64,000 bases of DNA from Escherichia coli (GTDB lineage: Bacteria > Pseudomonadota > Gammaproteobacteria > Enterobacterales > Enterobacteriaceae), in NCBI RefSeq assembly GCF_003334765.1, contig NZ_QOWT01000001.1; one strand, 5' to 3'. Position numbers and translations under genes: made by a program. A model generated the notes under the pieces. That model ran no database searches. It was not told the DNA's origin and saw nothing but the letters and a program-made list of their open reading frames with translations. This document shows positions 5,175 through 28,245 of this stretch, in pieces; the stretch's first letter is position 1, and the number at the start of each line of letters is the position of its first letter.

Positions 5175-6146
5175 TTACTTATCGATTTTGCTGATCAGAT
5201 CCATCATTTTCAGTTTCGGATCGGTGGAAACCTTACGGACTTCCAGCTCAATACCGCGCGCATTCAGTTTCTTGAACGCCTCGATATCTTTTTCATCAAC
5301 CGAAACCGCGTTATTCACCTGGGTTTTACCCTGACGGAATGCCATACCACCGACGTTAACAGAGGTGATTTTCACGCCGCCTTCAACGAGACGCTCTACA
5401 TCTGTTGGGTTGGTAAATAACAGCATTACGCGTTCGCCAGCATATTTCGGGTTGTTGTAGACGCGAATCATTTTGGCAACATCAACTACGTGTGCTGTTA
5501 CGCCCGGAGGTGCAACCTGGGTGAGCAGTGTCTTACGAACGGTATCCGCAGCCACTTCATCACTAACAACAATAATACGGGAGACATTGGTTTCTTTGGT
5601 CCAGCGGGTGGCGACCTGACCGTGAATCAGACGGTCGTCGATACGCGCAAGGCCAATAACCATGTAGTCGTTTGGCCCCATTGGTTTTGCCGGAGTTGGA
5701 GCCGCTTTTGGTGCTGCGGCAGCGGGTGCTGGCGCGGCTTTTTCAACCGGTTTGGCTTTCAGTGCTTTCACGCCTTCACGGCCTGTTTCTACTGCCAGTG
5801 CCACCAGTTCATCAAAGCTTGGGTCATCATCACGGGCCATTAACGTTTCCACGAGCATTGGAATGTTAACGCCTGCAATGACTTCATAATGCTCTTTGTC
5901 GACGACAATGCGGCTGGCAGCATTGAACGGGCTGCCTCCCCATGTATCAACGAGAAACAGCACGCCTTTAGTGGTGTCGAGTTTTGCCAACTGAGCGTTG
6001 TACTTTTCAATCAGCGTTTCGGCATTTTCACCTGGAACGAAATCGATCCAGCCGACGTTTTCCTGCTCGCCTAACAGCATTTCTGCCGTTTTAAGCAACT
6101 GCTCTGCAGCCCAACCATGTGTGCCTATAACAATAGCAATGGTCAC
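5175..6146 (-). CDS. manX: Mannose PTS EIIAB component ManX
   Basis: 323-aa ORF; IIA His motif VIGTHGW, Ala/Pro-rich linker, IIB motif LIHGQV. Confidence 0.92.
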   Translation of the reverse strand: MTIAIVIGTHGWAAEQLLKTAEMLLGEQENVGWIDFVPGENAETLIEKYNAQLAKLDTTKGVLFLVDTWGGSPFNAASRIVVDKEHYEVIAGVNIPMLVETLMARDDDPSFDELVALAVETGREGVKALKAKPVEKAAPAPAAAAPKAAPTPAKPMGPNDYMVIGLARIDDRLIHGQVATRWTKETNVSRIIVVSDEVAADTVRKTLLTQVAPPGVTAHVVDVAKMIRVYNNPKYAGERVMLLFTNPTDVERLVEGGVKITSVNVGGMAFRQGKTQVNNAVSVDEKDIEAFKKLNARGIELEVRKVSTDPKLKMMDLISKIDK

Positions 6147-6608
6147 TTGCTACCTCCTTTATTATCGTTAACACCTCAACGTGCCAGATGTATTTTTGAA
6201 TCGTCGTCCACAATCGAATCGATTCAGATAAGGGCTACAACCAAAAACCCCTGCGTTTCGCGATTTATTTTAGATATCGAAAAAATTATTTTATGTGATG
6301 AAGATCCGTAATTTAACTTTCGATTAGCAGAAATTTCGAAAGGTAAAATATCCTTGTTACATTCGTTTGCAAAGGAAGGTAAATCTTTGCCAAATCAGAG
6401 GCGTCTCTGATATGTTTAACTCCCGTTTAACAACCATGGAGTATAGGGCAGTAGCCCGCAGTATGGATCGTCACCGACGTCATTTCAGCATCAGGCCTTT
6501 TAACGCCCGCCTTTCTGGCACTCTATGCCGCACCTTTCGTTTGCATTTTGTCGTTACGCCTGCATTATTTCTGGCGTCGAATAGCTATTCCTTAAGCAGG
6601 AGCTTGTC

Positions 6609-8168: not shown

Positions 8169-9767
8169 TTAACGTAACGGCATAATGGGCGTGATATGTC
8201 CATTATGCCGGGCGGGCGGCGGTTGGCTGCCCGCCAGCCATTTGGGAAAATCACGTAGCGGCATCGGCTGTGCGTACAAATACCCTTGCAAAATATGCAC
8301 GCCATGACGGCGCAAATACTTCGCCTGTTCTTGCGTTTCCACGCCCTCCGCCACCAGTTCAATATTCAGTCTTTGCCCCAGCGCGATGATGATATCGGTC
8401 ACCGTCGAGTTAACCGCGTCAGAACCTATAGCTGCGGTAAATGACTTATCAATTTTCAGCACGTCAGGACGTAATGTTTCAAGCCAGGAAAACGAGCTGT
8501 TGCCGGTGCCGAAGTCATCAATCGCCAGTTTGACGTTTTTACGATGCAGCTCGCGGGCAATCCGATAATCAACATCCAGTAAGGCATCGCGTTCGGTGAT
8601 TTCGAGGATCAGTTGCTGAATCGGGTGAGCGCTAAACCAGTACTGATTGAGATCTTTTATCAGCACACCACGGCGAAAATGGCTGGGTGCGACGTTAATG
8701 CCAACATGAAACTGACTACTCATCGGGAAAACATGGCGCTGACGAATGGTTTCTGCCATCACATAGCGGGTCAGTGGCACAATTAAATGATGTTCTTCCG
8801 CGATAGGAATAAACACATCCGGTGAAATCCAGCCCTGACGCGGATTGTTCCAGCGCAGCAAAATCTCTACACCAATACATTGCTGGCTGCGCGCATTAAG
8901 CAAAGGCTGACAGAACAATTCGAACTCATGTTGCGCCAGGCCCAGATTGATTTCGCGGGAAAAGCTCATTCGGTAAGCGGTCGCCAGCCAGGCGATGTAG
9001 CCCACCAGTAAACTTAGCAGCACCGCCAGCGGTAATTGTGTTGGAAGATAGTGCCATGCCAGCGCCGTAGCCCCCGGACCATTAACGTTAATGGTAAAAG
9101 GAAAGCGTTGCGAAGAAACCTGATAGTTTTCATTGTCTTCAGGTTGCGGAAGGGAATCTACCAGCCCATTACCATAGAGCAAATGCCGTTTGTCCACCGT
9201 CAGGCTGGCGCTACTGATTTGCGGCAGTTGTGGCTCAAGCAGCATTGCCGTCAGTAAGTCGATGTTAATCATCTCCATGACCCCAGCATTGCTACTGCCC
9301 GCTGCAGGCGTCCATTGAATCAAAACCGGACTGCCTTTAATCAGGGCACGGTCGATCGTCAGGCGTAAAAGTGGTTGCGGTGCAGGAAGTTCAGCCAGAA
9401 TGTCCACGACGGGCACATTGCGATAACCAAAAATGCTGGAGCAATAAAGTGTGCCGTCTTGCACCAGGCCAATGGATCGCACAGTTTGGAGTTTTGCCGC
9501 CTGTTTACGTAATGGCAAATGGGCGACAGAGCAGGGCAGACCAATCAGCGGAAGCAAGACTTCGCTACCTGCCTGTAGGGGAAGCAGTACTTTATCTAAT
9601 TCCTCTACAGCGTGATTGGCGAATTGTACTACCCGTTGTTGATTTAAGTTACGCTGTGAAATAAATCGCACGCTCAGGGTCGAAGCGAGCGTAACGAGTG
9701 CGCAAATCGTACAAACAATCATTCGATTACGACGATAGGTTTTAATGATCCGTTGTGCTTTTTGCAT
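8169..9767 (-). CDS. pdeD: c-di-GMP phosphodiesterase PdeD (YoaD), membrane-anchored EAL protein
   Basis: Track ORF 8169-9797 (542 aa); start set at the internal Met (MQKAQRIIKTYRR, 532 aa) per remembered K-12 length; C-terminal EAL-type domain. Confidence 0.8.
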   Translation of the reverse strand: MQKAQRIIKTYRRNRMIVCTICALVTLASTLSVRFISQRNLNQQRVVQFANHAVEELDKVLLPLQAGSEVLLPLIGLPCSVAHLPLRKQAAKLQTVRSIGLVQDGTLYCSSIFGYRNVPVVDILAELPAPQPLLRLTIDRALIKGSPVLIQWTPAAGSSNAGVMEMINIDLLTAMLLEPQLPQISSASLTVDKRHLLYGNGLVDSLPQPEDNENYQVSSQRFPFTINVNGPGATALAWHYLPTQLPLAVLLSLLVGYIAWLATAYRMSFSREINLGLAQHEFELFCQPLLNARSQQCIGVEILLRWNNPRQGWISPDVFIPIAEEHHLIVPLTRYVMAETIRQRHVFPMSSQFHVGINVAPSHFRRGVLIKDLNQYWFSAHPIQQLILEITERDALLDVDYRIARELHRKNVKLAIDDFGTGNSSFSWLETLRPDVLKIDKSFTAAIGSDAVNSTVTDIIIALGQRLNIELVAEGVETQEQAKYLRRHGVHILQGYLYAQPMPLRDFPKWLAGSQPPPARHNGHITPIMPLR

Positions 9768-21336: not shown

Positions 21337-21379
21337 CCGAAGCCGGACTGGGCGCGCTCAGCGCCACATCCGGCTTCGG
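21337..21379. terminator. Nested inverted repeat between convergent rnd and yeaX (terminator/REP-like)
   Basis: 11-bp arms ccgaagccgga / tccggcttcgg enclosing an inner palindrome ggcgcgctcagcgcc. Confidence 0.5.
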
Positions 21380-21383
21380 CAAA

Positions 21384-22349
21384 CTACAAATCCAACACCA
21401 GGCGTTTACCCTTCGCACGCGAACAACAGATCAACATACTTTGCTGGCTGGCACGCTCTTCATCGCTAAAATATTGATCCCGATGGTCAGCTTCACCTTC
21501 CAGTATTGCTGTTTCGCAGGTTCCGCATACCCCTTCACGACATAAACATTCCACTTTCGCGGCTTTATTATTTTCAATAACCTGCAAAATAGTCATCTCT
21601 TCCGGCACCACAAACTCTTTTCCGGAACGGGCAAGCACCAGGGTAAATGCATCGCCGGTTTTGTCTTCGATAGCAAATTGCTCAAAGTGCAGCGTATCGG
21701 CGGCGATGTCCAGACGCGCAGCTTCACTTCTTACCGCTTCAATTAGCGCCTCGGGGCCACAGGTATAAACGTGTGTGCCAGGTTCGATATCCGCCAATAA
21801 TCGCGCTAATTCCAGTCGTGTTCCGGTTGATGAATGATGCAAATGGACTTTCTCAGCCTGCGGATGCTGGACTAGCTCATCACGAAATGCGCAACTTTCT
21901 GGATTTCGCGAGCAGTAATGTAGCTGCCAGTCGACGTCGCTGTGTTGCAGCTCTGCCATGTGCGACAGGAAAGGGGTGATACCAATACCGCCCGCGATAA
22001 ACAGATGCTTTCTGGCTGAGGGAATTAGCGCAAACAGGTTATTAGGCGTTGAAATCGTTAACCGATCGCCCACTTTTACCTGCTGATGCAAAAAGCGGGA
22101 ACCGCCGCGCGAGTTTTCCTCCAGCCGAACGGCAATCTGATAACAAGAGGTGTCATGCGGCGAACTCAGTAGTGAATACGCATTGCTGTACTGGTTATCA
22201 CCATCGCTCATCTGCACAATGACGTGACTTCCTCCGGTAAACGCAGGTAATGGTTTGCCATCGGTTGCCACCAGCGTGAAGCGTTTCACCTGTTCGGTAA
22301 GGGGTTCAACCTGGCTCACCTGTACTTCAAACATTTGATAGTCTGACAT
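21384..22349 (-). CDS. yeaX: Carnitine monooxygenase reductase subunit YeaX (FNR-like with plant-type 2Fe-2S ferredoxin domain)
   Basis: 321-aa ORF; C-terminal ferredoxin motif CREGVCGTCET; recognised as YeaX. Confidence 0.9.
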   Translation of the reverse strand: MSDYQMFEVQVSQVEPLTEQVKRFTLVATDGKPLPAFTGGSHVIVQMSDGDNQYSNAYSLLSSPHDTSCYQIAVRLEENSRGGSRFLHQQVKVGDRLTISTPNNLFALIPSARKHLFIAGGIGITPFLSHMAELQHSDVDWQLHYCSRNPESCAFRDELVQHPQAEKVHLHHSSTGTRLELARLLADIEPGTHVYTCGPEALIEAVRSEAARLDIAADTLHFEQFAIEDKTGDAFTLVLARSGKEFVVPEEMTILQVIENNKAAKVECLCREGVCGTCETAILEGEADHRDQYFSDEERASQQSMLICCSRAKGKRLVLDL

Positions 22350-22404
22350 TGCTGTACTCCATCAAAAATCAGCCCAGCGGCGGAAAATACCGCCGCCGAT
22401 GTCA

Positions 22405-23529
22405 TTAGTCCTTAAACACCTGCGCCAGCAGATTATGGAAATGGGCGATACCATGTTCGGAAATGCCACTACCGCTACTGTCGGCCATGATGCGCCCCTG
22501 ACCACGATAGCCACGCGATTTCAGCCCTTTCTGTACGCTTTCAACCAGACGTAAATCTTCCGGACGGAACACATCGCGATACCACTCAATCAGCGATTTT
22601 TGCTCGTCGGTTAACTCTTCATTGGTGAAGTAAATATCGTAGTTTTGCAGGGTAGTTTCAGAATCCACCGGGAATTCATAAATGACCGTCATCATCCCTT
22701 TGATCGGGGTGACGTTCAGCATCGTGCACGGCCACAGCCAGAAACCGTGGAATGCCGCATCCGTACCCTCTTCAAATTTAAACGACTGTTCGGACGGTTT
22801 GGCGAAACCGTATTGCAGCGTCCAGTTACCGTGCATGGTGTGCCAGTAACGATCAACCTGTACGGAGTCGGAGAAACCTGGATGCGCCGGACCACAGTGA
22901 TAGCACTCGAGATAGTTATCGACAATGTTCTTCCAGTTGGCAGGCGTGCGGGTGGTAAAGCGGGCCGCCAGTTTCAGATCGTGGACTTCCGGGCAGGCTT
23001 CCAGCACTTTCGCGCCCAGGCCGGGTAATTGATCTTCTACGCTGGTGGCGTTGGGGTCCATGTTGATGAAGACGAATCCGGCATATTCTTCCAGACGCAC
23101 CGGAACCAGTTGCGCTTTGTCGCTATCGAAATTGGCGACGTTTTCGCAGTTACGTGCATGGGCCAGGTTGCCATCGAGTTTGAATGCCCATGCGTGATAC
23201 GGGCAGGTAATCACATTTTTTGCTTTTCCTTCACCGCTCAACAACTGATGACCACGGTGCGGACACACGTTATAGAACGCGCGCAAAACCTTATCACGAC
23301 CGCGTACCAGCACGATGCTTTCGCCAATGATCTCACGCGTCACATAATCATTGGCATTCGCCAGTTCGCTGCTGTGAGCGACGCAAATCCAGCTTTTGGC
23401 GAAGACGTTCTCTTTTTCGTGTTCAAACGCGTTCTGATCGGTATAAAAACGGGCAGGAATGGTCCACGCCTCTTGCGGGTTAGCGCAAAAATTTTCGGGT
23501 AGTACAAAGTCAGGGCTCAGATTGCTCAT
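22405..23529 (-). CDS. yeaW: Carnitine monooxygenase oxygenase subunit YeaW (Rieske non-haem iron oxygenase)
   Basis: Track ORF 22405-23649; start set at MSNLSPDF (374 aa); Rieske motif CPHRGHQL...CPYHAW. Confidence 0.88.
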   Translation of the reverse strand: MSNLSPDFVLPENFCANPQEAWTIPARFYTDQNAFEHEKENVFAKSWICVAHSSELANANDYVTREIIGESIVLVRGRDKVLRAFYNVCPHRGHQLLSGEGKAKNVITCPYHAWAFKLDGNLAHARNCENVANFDSDKAQLVPVRLEEYAGFVFINMDPNATSVEDQLPGLGAKVLEACPEVHDLKLAARFTTRTPANWKNIVDNYLECYHCGPAHPGFSDSVQVDRYWHTMHGNWTLQYGFAKPSEQSFKFEEGTDAAFHGFWLWPCTMLNVTPIKGMMTVIYEFPVDSETTLQNYDIYFTNEELTDEQKSLIEWYRDVFRPEDLRLVESVQKGLKSRGYRGQGRIMADSSGSGISEHGIAHFHNLLAQVFKD

Positions 23530-23560
23530 AGGGATACCTTTATCGTTAGGATGATGGCGC

Positions 23561-25006
23561 TCAGTTGTCGCCTTTGAATACGGTTCCCGCAGGGAGCACT
23601 GGCGTTTTTTCCAGGGCTTCAACCGGTGTCTGCGGGAGATAATGTTCAACTTGATGAGCCGGAATGTCGGCGTAATCCTGTTTCAGCCAGCGAATAAACC
23701 CGCCGACTTTCACCAGTAAAATGACGAGGAAGGGAAGGGCTGTGAGCACGACGGTGGTTTTCATCGTTTCCAGCGAAGCACCGGTAAACAAGATGGAAAG
23801 CGGGATCAGAGTGATCACCACGCACCAGAAAAGACGCAGCCCACGGTCAGGATCGTCACCTTCCTGGAGATTACGCGTACTGGTCGCCGCCATGGTGTAG
23901 GCCACTGCATCCATATGCGAGGCAAGGAAAATAATCATCACGCCCAGGTATGCGGCGAGGAACAATTTACCGGCTGGCAACGACATCAGAACTTGCTGTA
24001 CAGCTGTTTCGCCGCCCAGTGTTTCCAGCACCTGTGGGACGTTGATTACGCCATTGATAAACTGATGAATGGCATAGCTTTCCATTACGCCAAAGAAGAA
24101 CCAGCAACCGACGGTGCTGCCGAGGATCAGTCCCCAGATAACTTCTTTAATCTTACGACCGCGGGAAACGCGGGTGACAAACATTGCTACGCCAGGGGTG
24201 TATGAGATCCACCACAGCCAGTAGAAAACGGTCCAGTTGCGGGTAAATGAACCATCGCCAAGCGGATCGGTGAATAAGCTCATTTGCAGGAAGTTTTGCG
24301 TGGTCAGGCCGATGGCATTGATGATGCTGTTGGTAATAAATTCGGTTGGGCCGACAATCAGCACCAGTAATGGCAGCAGGAACGCGCCCCAGCCAACCAT
24401 TTTGCTCAGACGTTGCAAACCGTTGTTGATACCAATCCACGAGCTTAGGCAAAAAATGCCGCCGGAAAGCAGGATCACAAATGCCTGCACGGTGAAGTTA
24501 TCGGGTAAACCGGTCAGCGCGGAAAGCCCACGGGTAAAGGTTGCTGCGGTAACAACAAGGGAAATGGTCAGTGCGCCGACAGTGGCGATCAGGAACATCA
24601 AATCGACCAGTTTTCCCCATGGGCCTTGCGGGCGAACGCCGGTAATAGCAGCAATAATGCCGGAAAGGCTCAGACCTTTGTTTTTCCGCACATGAAAGTG
24701 ATAAGCCATGATTAATGAGGCCAGCGTATAAGTTGCCCAGGCGCTGATGCCCCAGTGGAAGAAAGAGTAGGGAACGCTAAATTCGAGTGCCTGTTGTGAA
24801 CGCGGTGCGATATTTAATCCAGGTGTTTGATAATAATAGGCCCATTCAGCAACCCCCCAATAAAGCGTAGAAGAACCTAAACCGGCACAAATAAACATAA
24901 ACAGCCAGGAGAGCGTGCTGTATTCCGGTTTTCCTTCGCCAAGACGAATATTGCCGTATTTACTGGTGGCTAAATAAATCACCAGTCCCATTGCCAGCAA
25001 AACCAA
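23561..25006 (-). CDS. yeaV: BCCT-family transporter YeaV
   Basis: 481-aa polytopic membrane ORF; recognised as YeaV. Confidence 0.88.
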
Positions 25007-25196
25007 TACCTGTACGGCGGAACCTAACGTACGCGTAACAAAATTTGCATGTTACATAAATTAAACAATTAAGAATACGGAAAGCCATAAAACACGAAAC
25101 GGAAACAATAAAAGGTGAAATGACGCAGGTTATTTACTGCAAAGAACGAATAAAAAAACCGCGTCAGTGACGCGGTTCAAATAAACTGGTTTGACC

Positions 25197-26282
25197 TTAA
25201 CGCAAAATAATTTTGCAAATCGCGTCGGCAACCTGTGGCGTGGTGGCATTGCCTTTCATATCAGGTGTTTTCGGCCCGTGAGCAATCACTTCTTCAATTG
25301 CTGCCAGAATACCGTTATGCGCTTGCTGGAAACGCTCATCGCCATTGCCGAGAAAATCGAGCATCATTGCCCCGGCCCAAATCGTGGCGATAGGGTTAGC
25401 AATATTTTTCCCGTAGATATCCGGCGCGGAACCGTGGACAGGCTCGAAGAGCGACGGGAAAGTGCGTTCCGGATTCAGGTTGGCGGATGGGGCAATGCCA
25501 ATGGTGCCGGTGCAGGCCGGGCCAAGATCGGAAAGGATATCGCCAAACAAATTGGACGCCACCACCACATCGAATCGTTCCGGCTGCATCACAAAACGCG
25601 CGCAGAGAATATCAATATGCTGCTTGTCCCAGCGGATCTCCGGGTAATTCTCGGCCATTGCTTCCACTCGCTCATCCCAGTACGGCATGCTGATGGCTAA
25701 ACCGTTCGATTTAGTGGCAGAAGTTAGTGTCTTACGTGGACGGCTTTGCGCAAGTTCGAAGGCATAACGCAAAATGCGATCGACACCACGGCGGGTAAAT
25801 ACCGATTCCTGAATGACGACTTCATGCTCTGTACCTTCATTCACTCTACCGCCGAGCGAGGAATATTCGCCTTCGGTGTTTTCCCTGACCACGTAAAAAT
25901 CGATGTCGCCAGGCTGTTTTCCCGCCAGCGGGCAGGGAACGCCAGGAAAGAGACGAACCGGGCGCAGGTTGACGTACTGGTCGAATTCACGACGAAATTT
26001 CAGCAGCGAACCCCACAACGAAATATGGTCCGGAACGGTATCCGGCCAGCCGACGGCACCAAAATAGATGGCGTCGAAACGGCTAAGTTGCTCATGCCAG
26101 TCGTCCGGCATCATTTTACCGTGATGGCTGTAATACTCGCAGCTCGCCCACTCCATTTGCTCAAAACTCAAGGCGAAGCCCCAGCGCTCAGCGGCAGCCT
26201 GTAACACGCGAATCCCTTCAGGAAGGACTTCTTTGCCAATCCCGTCTCCCGGGATCGCAGCAATACGCATCGTTTTCATCAT
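25197..26282 (-). CDS. dmlA: D-malate dehydrogenase (decarboxylating) DmlA (YeaU)
   Basis: 361-aa ORF of the isocitrate/isopropylmalate dehydrogenase family; recognised as DmlA. Confidence 0.9.
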   Translation of the reverse strand: MMKTMRIAAIPGDGIGKEVLPEGIRVLQAAAERWGFALSFEQMEWASCEYYSHHGKMMPDDWHEQLSRFDAIYFGAVGWPDTVPDHISLWGSLLKFRREFDQYVNLRPVRLFPGVPCPLAGKQPGDIDFYVVRENTEGEYSSLGGRVNEGTEHEVVIQESVFTRRGVDRILRYAFELAQSRPRKTLTSATKSNGLAISMPYWDERVEAMAENYPEIRWDKQHIDILCARFVMQPERFDVVVASNLFGDILSDLGPACTGTIGIAPSANLNPERTFPSLFEPVHGSAPDIYGKNIANPIATIWAGAMMLDFLGNGDERFQQAHNGILAAIEEVIAHGPKTPDMKGNATTPQVADAICKIILR

Positions 26283-26384: not shown

Positions 26385-27308
26385 ATGAATAATTTACCGC
26401 TGCTGAATGATTTGCGCGTCTTTATGCTGGTGGCTCGCCGGGCTGGTTTTGCCGCCGTGGCGGAAGAACTGGGCGTTTCACCGGCGTTCGTCAGCAAGCG
26501 CATCGCCTTGCTGGAGCAAACGCTAAACGTGGTGTTGTTACACCGCACCACCCGCCGCGTCACCATTACCGAAGAAGGAGAGCGGATTTATGAATGGGCG
26601 CAGCGGATTTTGCAGGATGTCGGTCAGATGATGGACGAACTTTCTGACGTGCGTCAGGTGCCGCAGGGGATGCTGCGTATTATCAGCAGCTTTGGTTTTG
26701 GACGACAGGTGGTGGCTCCGGCGTTATCAGCGCTGGCGAAGGCGTATCCGCAACTGGAATTACGTTTTGATGTGGAAGACCGACTGGTCGATTTGGTCAA
26801 TGAAGGTGTCGATCTCGATATTCGCATTGGCGATGACATCGCCCCTAATTTAATCGCCCGCAAACTGGCGACCAATTACCGTATTCTCTGCGCGTCGCCG
26901 GAATTTATTGCGCAACATGGCGCGCCGAAACATTTAACCGATCTTTCTGCATTGCCGTGCCTGGTCATTAAAGAGCGCGATCATCCTTTTGGTGTCTGGC
27001 AATTACGCAATAAAGAAGGCCCCCATGCGATTAAAGTCACCGGCCCACTGTCGTCTAATCATGGAGAAATTGTCCATCAGTGGTGTCTCGATGGGCAGGG
27101 GATTGCTCTGCGTTCCTGGTGGGATGTTAGCGAAAACATTGCCAGTGGTCATTTAGTGCAAGTGCTACCGGAATATTACCAGCCAGCGAACGTCTGGGCC
27201 GTTTATGTTTCAAGGCTGGCGACGTCAGCGAAAGTGCGGATAACGGTAGAATTTTTACGCCAGTATTTTGCCGAGCACTACCCGAATTTTTCACTGGAGC
27301 ATGCCTGA
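26385..27308 (+). CDS. dmlR: LysR-family regulator DmlR (YeaT)
   Basis: Track ORF 26364-27308; start set at MNNLPLLNDLRVF (307 aa); N-terminal LysR HTH; divergent from dmlA. Confidence 0.85.
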   Translation: MNNLPLLNDLRVFMLVARRAGFAAVAEELGVSPAFVSKRIALLEQTLNVVLLHRTTRRVTITEEGERIYEWAQRILQDVGQMMDELSDVRQVPQGMLRIISSFGFGRQVVAPALSALAKAYPQLELRFDVEDRLVDLVNEGVDLDIRIGDDIAPNLIARKLATNYRILCASPEFIAQHGAPKHLTDLSALPCLVIKERDHPFGVWQLRNKEGPHAIKVTGPLSSNHGEIVHQWCLDGQGIALRSWWDVSENIASGHLVQVLPEYYQPANVWAVYVSRLATSAKVRITVEFLRQYFAEHYPNFSLEHA

Positions 27309-27365
27309 TTAATGATTCAATTATCGGGTTGATATCAGGTTAAAACCTGATTTTCTCCTTTCTAA

Positions 27366-28073
<708 letters not shown>

Positions 28074-28245
28074 TGCTTTCAGCCCGCGTTGTCGCGGGCT
28101 TCCCATCTATAATCCTCCCTGATTCTTCGCTGATATGGTGCTAAAAAGTAACCAATAAATGGTATTTAAAATGCAAATTATCAGGCGTACCCTGAAACGG
28201 CTGGAATAAACCGTTTTCAGCGCATTCACCGAAGGAGGGAAAAGG

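Follow-up and report, generated by a model that had tools for sequence, protein, structure and literature searches.

We conclude with high confidence that the region analyzed here holds the cluster for aerobic carnitine catabolism in the form it takes in E. coli K-12, consisting of the divergent regulator gene dmlR and the series dmlA-yeaV-yeaW-yeaX, and that this version is partly decayed, as the transporter gene yeaV has lost its 5′ end. The window, i.e., the whole analyzed stretch of 64,000 nucleotides, matches genomes of the E. coli K-12 type at 100% identity, and RefSeq names the genes in the identical sequence carnitine monooxygenase YeaW/YeaX, BCCT transporter YeaV and DmlA. Because all but the population counts given below is already contained in the literature or in the RefSeq annotation, this is an ordinary, known locus. 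A previous sequence-only reading had placed the three ORFs yeaX, yeaW and yeaV at 21384-25006, with the divergent pair dmlR-dmlA directly upstream of yeaV. All five genes were found again at the same positions, the three ORFs on the minus strand, as were the motifs named by that reading (CPHRGHQL at YeaW 89, CPYHAW at YeaW 109 and CREGVCGTCET at YeaX 270). The features of the locus are:

21384..22349, minus strand: yeaX (cntB), NADH-dependent reductase, 321 aa, assigned by Pfam domains and Cys positions
22374..22399, minus strand: G+C-rich hairpin of 10 pairs, then GCTGATTTTT, in the 55-nt yeaW-yeaX spacer, found in a scan for terminator-like structures
22405..23529, minus strand: yeaW (cntA), 374 aa from ATG, oxygenase subunit (Rieske type) of the carnitine monooxygenase
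23561..25042, minus strand: remnant of yeaV, retaining codons 44-536 of the gene for a 536-aa BCCT transporter
23561-25006, minus strand: yeaV ORF, 481 aa, TTG start, the YeaV of the K-12 annotation
25043..25044, minus strand: deletion junction, at which 225 bp of the intact E. coli alleles are missing
25156..25178, minus strand: intrinsic-terminator-like hairpin of 10 pairs with a T run, immediately following the stop codon of dmlA
25197..26282, minus strand: dmlA, decarboxylating D-malate / tartrate dehydrogenase, 361 aa
26385..27308, plus strand: dmlR, LysR-type regulator, divergent from dmlA, 307 aa (PGAP start)

The intergenic gaps measure 31 nt between yeaV and yeaW and 55 nt between yeaW and yeaX. 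In the ORF listing, yeaW appeared stretched to 414 aa, from an upstream TTG overlapping yeaV.

The oxygenase-reductase pair

YeaW is 72.8% identical (E = 9e-197) to CntA of A. baumannii (PDB 6Y8J) and contains the Pfam domains Rieske (E = 1.6e-23) and Ring_hydroxyl_A. The Rieske pattern C-x-H ... C-x-x-H is present, its ligands C89, H91, C109 and H112 aligning with C86, H88, C106 and H109 of CntA. The 2-His-1-carboxylate triad of the mononuclear iron is formed by H211, H216 and D325, and E208 occupies the position of the bridging residue E205 of CntA, where a glutamate rather than an aspartate is the CntA signature (PMC5433236, PMC7948474). A Cys pair of CntA is also retained in the alignment. 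All seven substrate pocket residues of CntA (Y203, Y225, F258, N270, Y295, Y315, F319) are identical in YeaW (Y206, Y228, F260, N272, Y297, Y317, F321), and the published ligand lists agree with the aligned residues (PMC7948474, PMC9508527). Neither CntA nor CntB has a model of its own in NCBIfam, and the top matches score far below their cutoffs; for YeaW, the best one is glycine betaine monooxygenase, with 154 bits against a cutoff of 670 and covering the N-terminal half only. GbcA/GbcB, which like CntA/YeaW belong to the group V Rieske oxygenases, are likewise a two-component oxygenase and reductase acting on a quaternary amine. However, the substrate pocket of YeaW is of the CntA and not of the GbcA type.

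In YeaX, Pfam detects FAD_binding_6 (9-103), NAD_binding_1 (117-207) and Fer2 (240-313). This order of flavin domain, NAD domain and C-terminal plant-type [2Fe-2S] ferredoxin is that of CntB/YeaX-type reductases (phthalate dioxygenase reductase-like, class IA). The cluster cysteines are C270 (codon 21540-21542), C275 (21525-21527), C278 (21516-21518) and C308 (21426-21428); the same ligands are reported for YeaX of K-12, with FMN as its flavin (PMC9508527). The pair, amplified from K-12 DH10B, carries FMN and both cluster types, consumes carnitine and O2 at ~1.3-1.5 umol/min/mg and converts L-carnitine to trimethylamine (TMA) and malic semialdehyde (PMC9508527). Further, YeaX replaces CntB alongside CntA at 100% activity (PMC9508527), and the published yeaW cloning primers match the gene ends in the window (PMC9508527). 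Thus, the earlier assignment of YeaW/YeaX as a two-component Rieske carnitine monooxygenase releasing TMA was right, with biochemistry available for the K-12 sequences (PMC9508527) and all ligands conserved. Judged by sequence, both genes are intact and the pair encoded in the window is a carnitine monooxygenase.

Substrate, missing msadh and the genes dmlR and dmlA

In the mechanism shown in the literature for these exact proteins, YeaX takes electrons from NADH via FMN to its plant-type [2Fe-2S] cluster. From there, electrons pass to the Rieske cluster of trimeric YeaW and across the subunit interface via E208 to the mononuclear iron at H211, H216 and D325. The iron activates O2 and hydroxylates the carbon beside the quaternary nitrogen of L-carnitine or gamma-butyrobetaine, and the hydroxylated product collapses to TMA and malic semialdehyde (succinic semialdehyde in the case of gamma-butyrobetaine). 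By analogy with the Acinetobacter pathway and given the conserved synteny, malic semialdehyde would be oxidized to D-malate, and DmlA, with DmlR as its LysR-type regulator, would decarboxylate the latter to pyruvate.

The counterpart of the locus in A. baumannii is the operon mdh-bcct-hyd-cntA-msadh-cntB with divergent carR, which encodes a proven and reconstituted pathway from carnitine through malic semialdehyde and then D-malate to pyruvate (PMC11353897). The order and orientation of the genes for LysR regulator, malate dehydrogenase (MDH), BCCT transporter, oxygenase and reductase are alike in both organisms. Identities between E. coli and Acinetobacter are about 45-49% for LysR, 70-72% for MDH, 54% for BCCT, 72-74% for the oxygenase and 50-53% for the reductase, in agreement with the published account (PMC11353897). 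In contrast to A. baumannii, E. coli lacks the acylcarnitine hydrolase gene hyd and the malic semialdehyde dehydrogenase gene msadh, an absence which has been noted before (PMC11353897). In Acinetobacter, many Citrobacter and some Xenorhabdus, msadh separates cntA from cntB, the Citrobacter version being a 488-aa aldehyde dehydrogenase with 64% identity to the Acinetobacter MSA-DH ortholog (A. nosocomialis, L032). A tblastn search of the window with the Citrobacter msadh protein gave no match. Since the Escherichia yeaW-yeaX spacer is homologous to the spacer following msadh in Citrobacter (compared with loci L012, L018 and L011), the hairpin spacer is probably a leftover of an msadh deletion. 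The hairpin itself may act as a partial terminator or as an RNA-stability element.

The absence of msadh from all Escherichia loci examined is relevant for the choice of substrate, as the physiological substrate in E. coli might instead be gamma-butyrobetaine, the end product of its own anaerobic cai pathway. Cleavage would then yield TMA and succinic semialdehyde, which GabD or Sad would convert to succinate, and this would explain why no msadh is needed. For CntA and YeaW orthologs, carnitine and gamma-butyrobetaine are about equally good substrates (PMC9508527), a structure of CntA with gamma-butyrobetaine exists (6Y8S; PMC7948474), and E. coli GabD is 62% identical to MSA-DH. Nevertheless, we consider gamma-butyrobetaine as the substrate proper unlikely: the D-malate dehydrogenase gene is tightly linked to the cluster in all enterobacterial loci without msadh, those of Escherichia included, a linkage which is only sensible for a hydroxylated substrate, i.e., carnitine.

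The relation of dmlR-dmlA to yeaVWX had been left open earlier, apart from their adjacency, which is confirmed; conserved order in six genera now places them in the same functional unit. The order LysR, D-malate dehydrogenase, BCCT, cntA and cntB is found in Escherichia, Citrobacter, Xenorhabdus, Shimwellia, Acinetobacter and Psychrobacter, and in most of the 65 closest cntA loci (L008-L072), which belong to two bacterial orders, represented by Enterobacterales and Moraxellaceae. DmlA matches the profile TIGR02089 above cutoff (565 bits) and is the ortholog, at about 72% identity, of the MDH of the Acinetobacter carnitine operon, which converts D-malate to pyruvate and CO2 (PMC11353897). By its position, DmlR is orthologous to CarR of Acinetobacter (45-49% identity). 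The conserved order together with the A. baumannii pathway thus argues, at the level of sequence comparison, that dmlR-dmlA belongs with yeaVWX and that the functional unit is wider than 21384-25006.

Some differences would fit a separate D-malate/tartrate unit which merely neighbors yeaVWX, with its own regulation and pathway. The gap between dmlA and yeaV is about 250 bp in enterobacteria, E. coli included, compared with about 60 bp in Acinetobacter, and contains the terminator-like hairpin, which is present after the dmlA stop codon in O157:H7 as well. In view of this hairpin, dmlA and yeaVWX may not share a transcript in E. coli. DmlR is known as a D-malate-responsive activator of dmlA and is not known as a carnitine sensor. 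Further, laboratory evolution on m-tartrate selected mutations in dmlA and in the dmlR promoter, and yeaVWX was not involved (PMC6452873). However, independence of the two units appears improbable in view of the gene order kept across Enterobacterales and Moraxellaceae, and since the Acinetobacter orthologs form one operon whose MDH consumes carnitine-derived D-malate.

The truncated transporter gene yeaV

A BCCT transporter gene preceding the oxygenase gene had been reported in the sequence-only reading. The family assignment stands, as the yeaV ORF matches NCBIfam NF007412 with E = 7e-292 and 969 bits; the gene is not intact, though, which had been missed, for of the 536 profile positions, only 56-536 are covered. 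When it is aligned to the O157:H7 allele, a deletion of 225 bp becomes apparent (junction 25044|25043), with a microhomology of no more than 1 nt where the ends meet. The missing stretch comprises ~97 bp of leader, in which the Shine-Dalgarno sequence CAGGAGA lies, as well as the ATG and codons 1-43 with TM1. According to hydropathy, TM1 of the full protein spans residues 12-30 and TM2 residues 49-67, so that the 481-aa YeaV lacks TM1 as well as roughly one third of TM2. In the remnant, the TTG at 25006 is the first start codon that could be used. In identical genomes, RefSeq/PGAP lists yeaV as a pseudogene "missing N-terminus". A full-length, 12-TM YeaV with its own translation start is not encoded in the window and, with TM1, ATG and Shine-Dalgarno sequence deleted, the three-gene module is therefore incomplete here. 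The intact allele of E. coli SE11 and O157:H7 has the same flanks, an identical YeaW protein (WP_000067822.1) and identical YeaV residues 56-536, and differs from the window by having the 225 bp with some of the leader, the Shine-Dalgarno motif, the ATG and yeaV codons 1-43. A consensus sigma-70 scan of the coding strand of the dmlA-yeaV gap found no promoter-like site in either the K-12 or the O157 allele. The sole CRP-like match, with 2 mismatches, coincides in part with the terminator hairpin of dmlA and may be due to chance.

The solved BCCTs CaiT, DddT and BetP share their fold with YeaV. Full-length YeaV aligns with DddT over residues 16-498 (E = 3e-100) and with CaiT over residues 26-502 (E = 8e-70). 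With 327 bits, YeaV stays far below the cutoff of the CaiT equivalog (541 bits), and its equivalog is a separate one, NF007412. YeaV is a predicted BCCT transporter by homology and, unlike CaiT, DddT and BetP, the copy in the window lacks TM1.

A working transporter might nevertheless be made from the truncated gene, in which case the three-gene module would be functional in K-12, as had been assumed earlier. Translation would start at TTG 25006 (or ATG 24991), and the ten-helix LeuT-type core TM3-TM12 would be complete without TM1 and most of TM2. The remaining 481 codons are open and undamaged, without any amino acid difference from the intact SE11 and O157 alleles; therefore, a shortened protein from TTG 25006 stays conceivable. 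In line with this, no frameshift or stop occurs in any of the 13 alleles with the deletion (from the window, REL606 and 11 natural isolates) that were compared over the whole ORF, a fourteenth sampled carrier, strain ES1 (L099), having an IS1 insertion, and metabolomics of K-12 with yeaV knocked out or overexpressed showed yeaV-dependent shifts, including carnitine depletion on overexpression (PMC10971958). On the other hand, the gene has lost its strong Shine-Dalgarno sequence together with the ATG, only an AGG at 2-nt spacing precedes TTG 25006, and TM1 is conserved among solved BCCT structures, the alignments beginning at residue 16-26. PGAP regards the truncated gene as a pseudogene, and in E. 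whittamii yeaV is independently broken by an 83-bp frameshifting deletion. The diversity among the 13 alleles is too low to show purifying selection: only four are distinct, with 8 synonymous and 1 nonsynonymous polymorphic codons, and seven of the eight synonymous changes occur in REL606 alone, where recombination probably introduced them. Taken together, a functional short YeaV is hardly to be expected, and we retain the reading of yeaV as a 5′-truncated remnant.

State of the locus in this strain and in E. coli

Two steps are damaged in the window, as msadh is absent and yeaV, the gene of the predicted dedicated importer, has neither ribosome binding site nor start codon nor TM1. Most likely, this strain has a competent but poorly expressed oxygenase-reductase pair without an uptake system of its own, and it is predicted not to grow on carnitine. 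In contrast to Acinetobacter, the E. coli laboratory strains tested in the literature (BL21, B and K12) did not grow on carnitine, and BL21 extracts had no detectable activity; the published tests thus cover only strains without the importer 5′ end and msadh. A review table listing K12, DH10B and BL21 as "confirmed" carnitine degraders (PMC6200775) was not counted as whole-cell evidence, because in the source cited for K12 that strain served as a qPCR standard only.

The YeaW/YeaX pair is a recognized source of gut TMA, the precursor of cardiovascular-disease-linked TMAO, and cntA amplicons from human stool are dominated by E. coli cntA/yeaW (PMC5433236). This gut relevance of the locus is already known; the practical addition is the truncation of the transporter. 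Since the "yeaV" of K-12, B and BL21 is a 5′-truncated remnant, K-12 and B are poor models for the transporter of this locus, and knockout or overexpression collections built on K-12 therefore test a YeaV protein without TM1.

The distribution of the deletion was surveyed in 5426 complete E. coli genomes, using a 50-nt query across the junction and a query from the deleted segment. The exact 225-bp deletion junction was found in 1439 genomes (26%), including all laboratory strains checked (K-12, REL606 and BL21(DE3)). The deleted segment, i.e., the intact state, is present in 2930 genomes (about 54%), with a YeaV length of 536 aa where checked (SE11, O157:H7), and the locus is lost in about 1059 genomes (about 20%). 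Surveys of cntA gene presence miss this strain-level decay of yeaV. The deletion might even act as a switch that decides, strain by strain, on the formation of TMA from carnitine in E. coli, a suggestion which we make tentatively and regard as doubtful rather than probable. If it were true, strains with the 536-aa importer (SE11, O157:H7) would import and cleave carnitine, and deletion carriers would be cntA-positive in gene surveys yet contribute little TMA. Such a switch would also help to account for the negative growth and activity results in K-12 and B strains.

Gene content of the locus and the YeaW/YeaX enzyme pair

The locus yeaV-yeaW-yeaX is known and characterised, and it was correctly identified by the sequence-only reading. 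The following features were located in the window:

21384-22349, minus strand: yeaX, ORF of 321 aa
22374-22399: hairpin in the yeaW-yeaX spacer (terminator scan)
22405-23529, minus strand: yeaW, ORF of 374 aa counted from its ATG
23561-25006, minus strand: yeaV ORF, 481 aa, TTG start
25156-25178: terminator-like hairpin after dmlA (terminator scan)
25197-26282, minus strand: dmlA, on the same strand as yeaV and immediately upstream of it (ORF and profile search)
RefSeq start ATG 26385, divergent from dmlA: dmlR (ORF and profile search)

The three ORFs claimed for 21384-25006 were all found there, consecutively on the minus strand (ORF listing), as was the dmlR-dmlA pair described as divergent and immediately upstream of yeaV, with dmlR as the gene that diverges. 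A 414-aa yeaW in the ORF listing, beginning at an upstream TTG, was rejected as an over-extension, its start overlapping yeaV. For dmlR, the ORF listing places the start at GTG 26364 (314 aa), whereas the RefSeq start yields 307 aa (MNNLPLL...). K-12-type genomes, e.g., O16:H48 and J53, match the 5.1-kb stretch at 100% identity, and RefSeq names the products in identical genomes BCCT transporter YeaV, carnitine monooxygenase oxygenase subunit YeaW, reductase subunit YeaX and D-malate/tartrate dehydrogenase DmlA. The genes yeaX and rnd are convergent, and an extended imperfect inverted repeat (GCCGAAGCCGGA...TCCGGCTTCGG, about 21340-21383) lies between their stop codons; it is probably a shared bidirectional terminator or REP-like element.

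YeaW consists of a Rieske and a ring-hydroxylating catalytic domain, and YeaX of flavin, NAD and ferredoxin domains in this order (Pfam). YeaW matched the A. baumannii CntA crystal-structure sequence 6Y8J with 72.8% identity (E = 9e-197), and every functionally assigned CntA residue (roles from PMC7948474) is conserved in the alignment; these YeaW residues are listed here together with the cluster cysteines of YeaX:

YeaW Rieske ligands: C89, H91, C109, H112
YeaW mononuclear iron ligands: H211, H216, D325
YeaW bridging glutamate: E208
YeaW cysteine pair: C209, C212
YeaW substrate pocket: Y206, Y228, F260, N272, Y297, Y317, F321
YeaX cluster cysteines: C270, C275, C278, C308

The three motifs quoted in the sequence-only reading are present at YeaW 89, YeaW 109 and YeaX 270. 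K-12 DH10B was the source from which Piskol et al. (2022; PMC9508527) amplified yeaX and yeaW, using primers which match the window sequence. They demonstrated that YeaX contains FMN plus a plant-type [2Fe-2S] cluster, that YeaW contains mononuclear iron and a Rieske cluster, and that the activity is 1.3-1.5 umol/min/mg, the enzyme being active at 0.4-5% O2. Their ligand list equals the one derived from the window. Since the residues are conserved and this biochemistry was performed on K-12 genes, the assignment of YeaW as oxygenase and YeaX as reductase is correct; the function is already established in the literature. There, electrons pass from NADH via YeaX-FMN, the YeaX [2Fe-2S] cluster and the YeaW Rieske cluster to the mononuclear Fe in the adjacent YeaW subunit, and YeaW cleaves carnitine or gamma-butyrobetaine in an O2-dependent manner to trimethylamine (TMA) and an aldehyde.

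The 5′-truncated yeaV allele

What we add is that yeaV here is a 5′-truncated allele, frequent in E. coli and found in all three standard laboratory strains checked. Of the 536 positions of the NCBIfam equivalog NF007412, the 481-aa ORF covers only 56-536, and yeaV of O157:H7 has 1611 nt (536 aa). Aligned to the O157:H7 allele, the window lacks 225 bp in one clean gap between 25044 and 25043. Lost with the deletion are the ATG start, codons 1-43 and, ahead of them, about 97 bp of leader that contained the Shine-Dalgarno sequence CAGGAGA; codons 44-55 remain in frame, but the first start codon comes after them. By hydropathy, residues 12-30 and 49-67 of full-length YeaV form TM1 and TM2, respectively, and its N-terminal helix is alignable to solved BCCT structures (DddT from residue 16, CaiT from residue 26). 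The TTG at 25006 lies mid-TM2, with a weak AGG 2 nt upstream as its sole Shine-Dalgarno-like signal, and PGAP calls yeaV in identical genomes a pseudogene ("incomplete ... missing N-terminus"). The earlier naming of yeaV as a BCCT transporter gene therefore holds for the family (NF007412 match) but not for an intact gene, and the K-12-type window probably yields no dedicated importer. The shortened YeaV might nevertheless be functional, its ORF being intact and yeaV-dependent shifts having been reported in a K-12 metabolomics screen (PMC10971958), although it lacks TM1 and its gene lacks translation signals. No damage is seen in the remaining 481 codons, whose protein sequence is identical to that of the SE11 and O157 alleles; the allele comparison of truncated yeaV comprised a small set with no power to detect selection. 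If the dedicated importer is not made, substrate access would depend on the other carnitine uptake systems, ProP, ProU and CaiT.

Decay of the cluster in Escherichia

Among 5426 complete E. coli genomes, 4367 hold at least 80% of the locus, 2930 have the 225-bp segment and an intact yeaV, and 1439 carry the exact K-12 deletion junction (counted with a 50-nt query unable to seed on intact alleles). SE11, with which Zhu and colleagues reportedly studied E. coli CntA in 2014, has an intact allele. Natural sources of deletion carriers include humans, poultry, pigs, dogs, cattle, an opossum and sediment; the deletion is also found in B REL606 and BL21(DE3). These B strains have, in addition, an IS4-like IS421 element inside yeaR, two genes upstream of dmlR (REL606 locus L005, 1-526; BL21(DE3) locus L100, 3966-5674).

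The locus is lost in about 1059 genomes, in which only fragments of dmlR and dmlA are left together with the final 24 nt of yeaX; the 5′ part of dmlR, most of dmlA, yeaV, yeaW and nearly all of yeaX are gone. In one loss allele (L003, NZ_CP069636.1), 5844-6260 corresponds to window 27141-28152, 25762-25934, 25172-25208 and 21407 downward. Three small remnants adjoin rnd, and therefore the loss occurred by several deletions, not a single event. One deletion carrier, the natural isolate E. coli ES1, has an IS1 insertion within the already truncated yeaV (L099, 2017-2714). The E. whittamii representative has an 83-bp out-of-frame deletion in yeaV (L009, about 8998-9003; equivalent to locus L001, 3511-3593) with yeaW and yeaX intact, a second, separate inactivation of the transporter. 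Based on the locus losses, the 225-bp deletion, the IS1 insertion and this frameshift, we conclude that the cluster is decaying in Escherichia, with the transporter gene struck repeatedly.

PMC11353897 reports that BL21, B and K12 fail to grow on carnitine and that BL21 extracts are without detectable activity. All three strains carry the yeaV truncation, which sections 3.13-3.15 and the Discussion of that paper do not mention. The truncation and the cluster membership of dmlR-dmlA are already visible in RefSeq annotation or published work; our own synthesis is confined to the population frequencies and to the connection with these negative phenotypes.

The ancestral cluster and its missing dehydrogenase

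A YeaW/CntA alignment scan with one genome per species returned 80 loci. A tblastn search with DmlR, DmlA, YeaV, YeaW and YeaX revealed a single conserved arrangement, in which DmlA, YeaV, YeaW and YeaX follow one another on the same strand and DmlR precedes them on the opposite one. It was seen in Escherichia, Citrobacter, Xenorhabdus, Shimwellia, Acinetobacter, Psychrobacter and a Neisseriaceae MAG. Judged from these comparisons, dmlR-dmlA belong to the same ancestral catabolic cluster as yeaVWX. [quoted passage not shown] (2024; PMC11353897). In E. coli, D-malate, if formed, would be removed by DmlA under DmlR control. Gamma-butyrobetaine, a substrate in the literature, might be the real one in E. 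coli, but the retained linkage to a D-malate dehydrogenase gene favours carnitine. That dmlR-dmlA might be an unrelated neighbour is countered by a gene order conserved across two bacterial orders.

The hairpin following dmlA suggests that, in E. coli, transcription of yeaVWX is at least partly separate from that of dmlA; a search of the dmlA-yeaV gap revealed no consensus promoter in either the K-12 or the O157 allele. A genomic SELEX study (PMC3105977) has yeaV among CRP targets, and in O157:H7 growth transitions bring an increase of yeaV and yeaW by about twofold; both observations are consistent with catabolite control. A CRP-like site (TTTGAACCGCGTCACT, 25166-25181; 2 mismatches to TGTGA-N6-TCACA, a match that could be chance) overlaps the dmlA terminator hairpin.

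Between cntA and cntB, all Acinetobacter, nine Citrobacter-like and four Xenorhabdus loci have a further gene, roughly 1.5 kb long; its product in Citrobacter sp. R56 is an aldehyde dehydrogenase of 488 aa, 64% identical to the malic semialdehyde dehydrogenase (MSA-DH) ortholog of A. nosocomialis (L032). This gene, msadh, is absent at all four Escherichia loci and at several Citrobacter and Xenorhabdus loci. In a comparison with L012 (12593-12654) and L018 (11123-11196), the 55-nt hairpin-bearing yeaW-yeaX spacer resembles the spacer 3′ of msadh in msadh-carrying Citrobacter, and Citrobacter loci without msadh still keep its last codons (GGCTGTAACGA), which points to a secondary loss of msadh. 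Within Enterobacterales, msadh deletion seems to have happened on more than one occasion. The aldehyde would have to be oxidised by an enzyme encoded outside the cluster, for example GabD, for which PMC11353897 gives 62% identity between the E. coli protein and MSA-DH.
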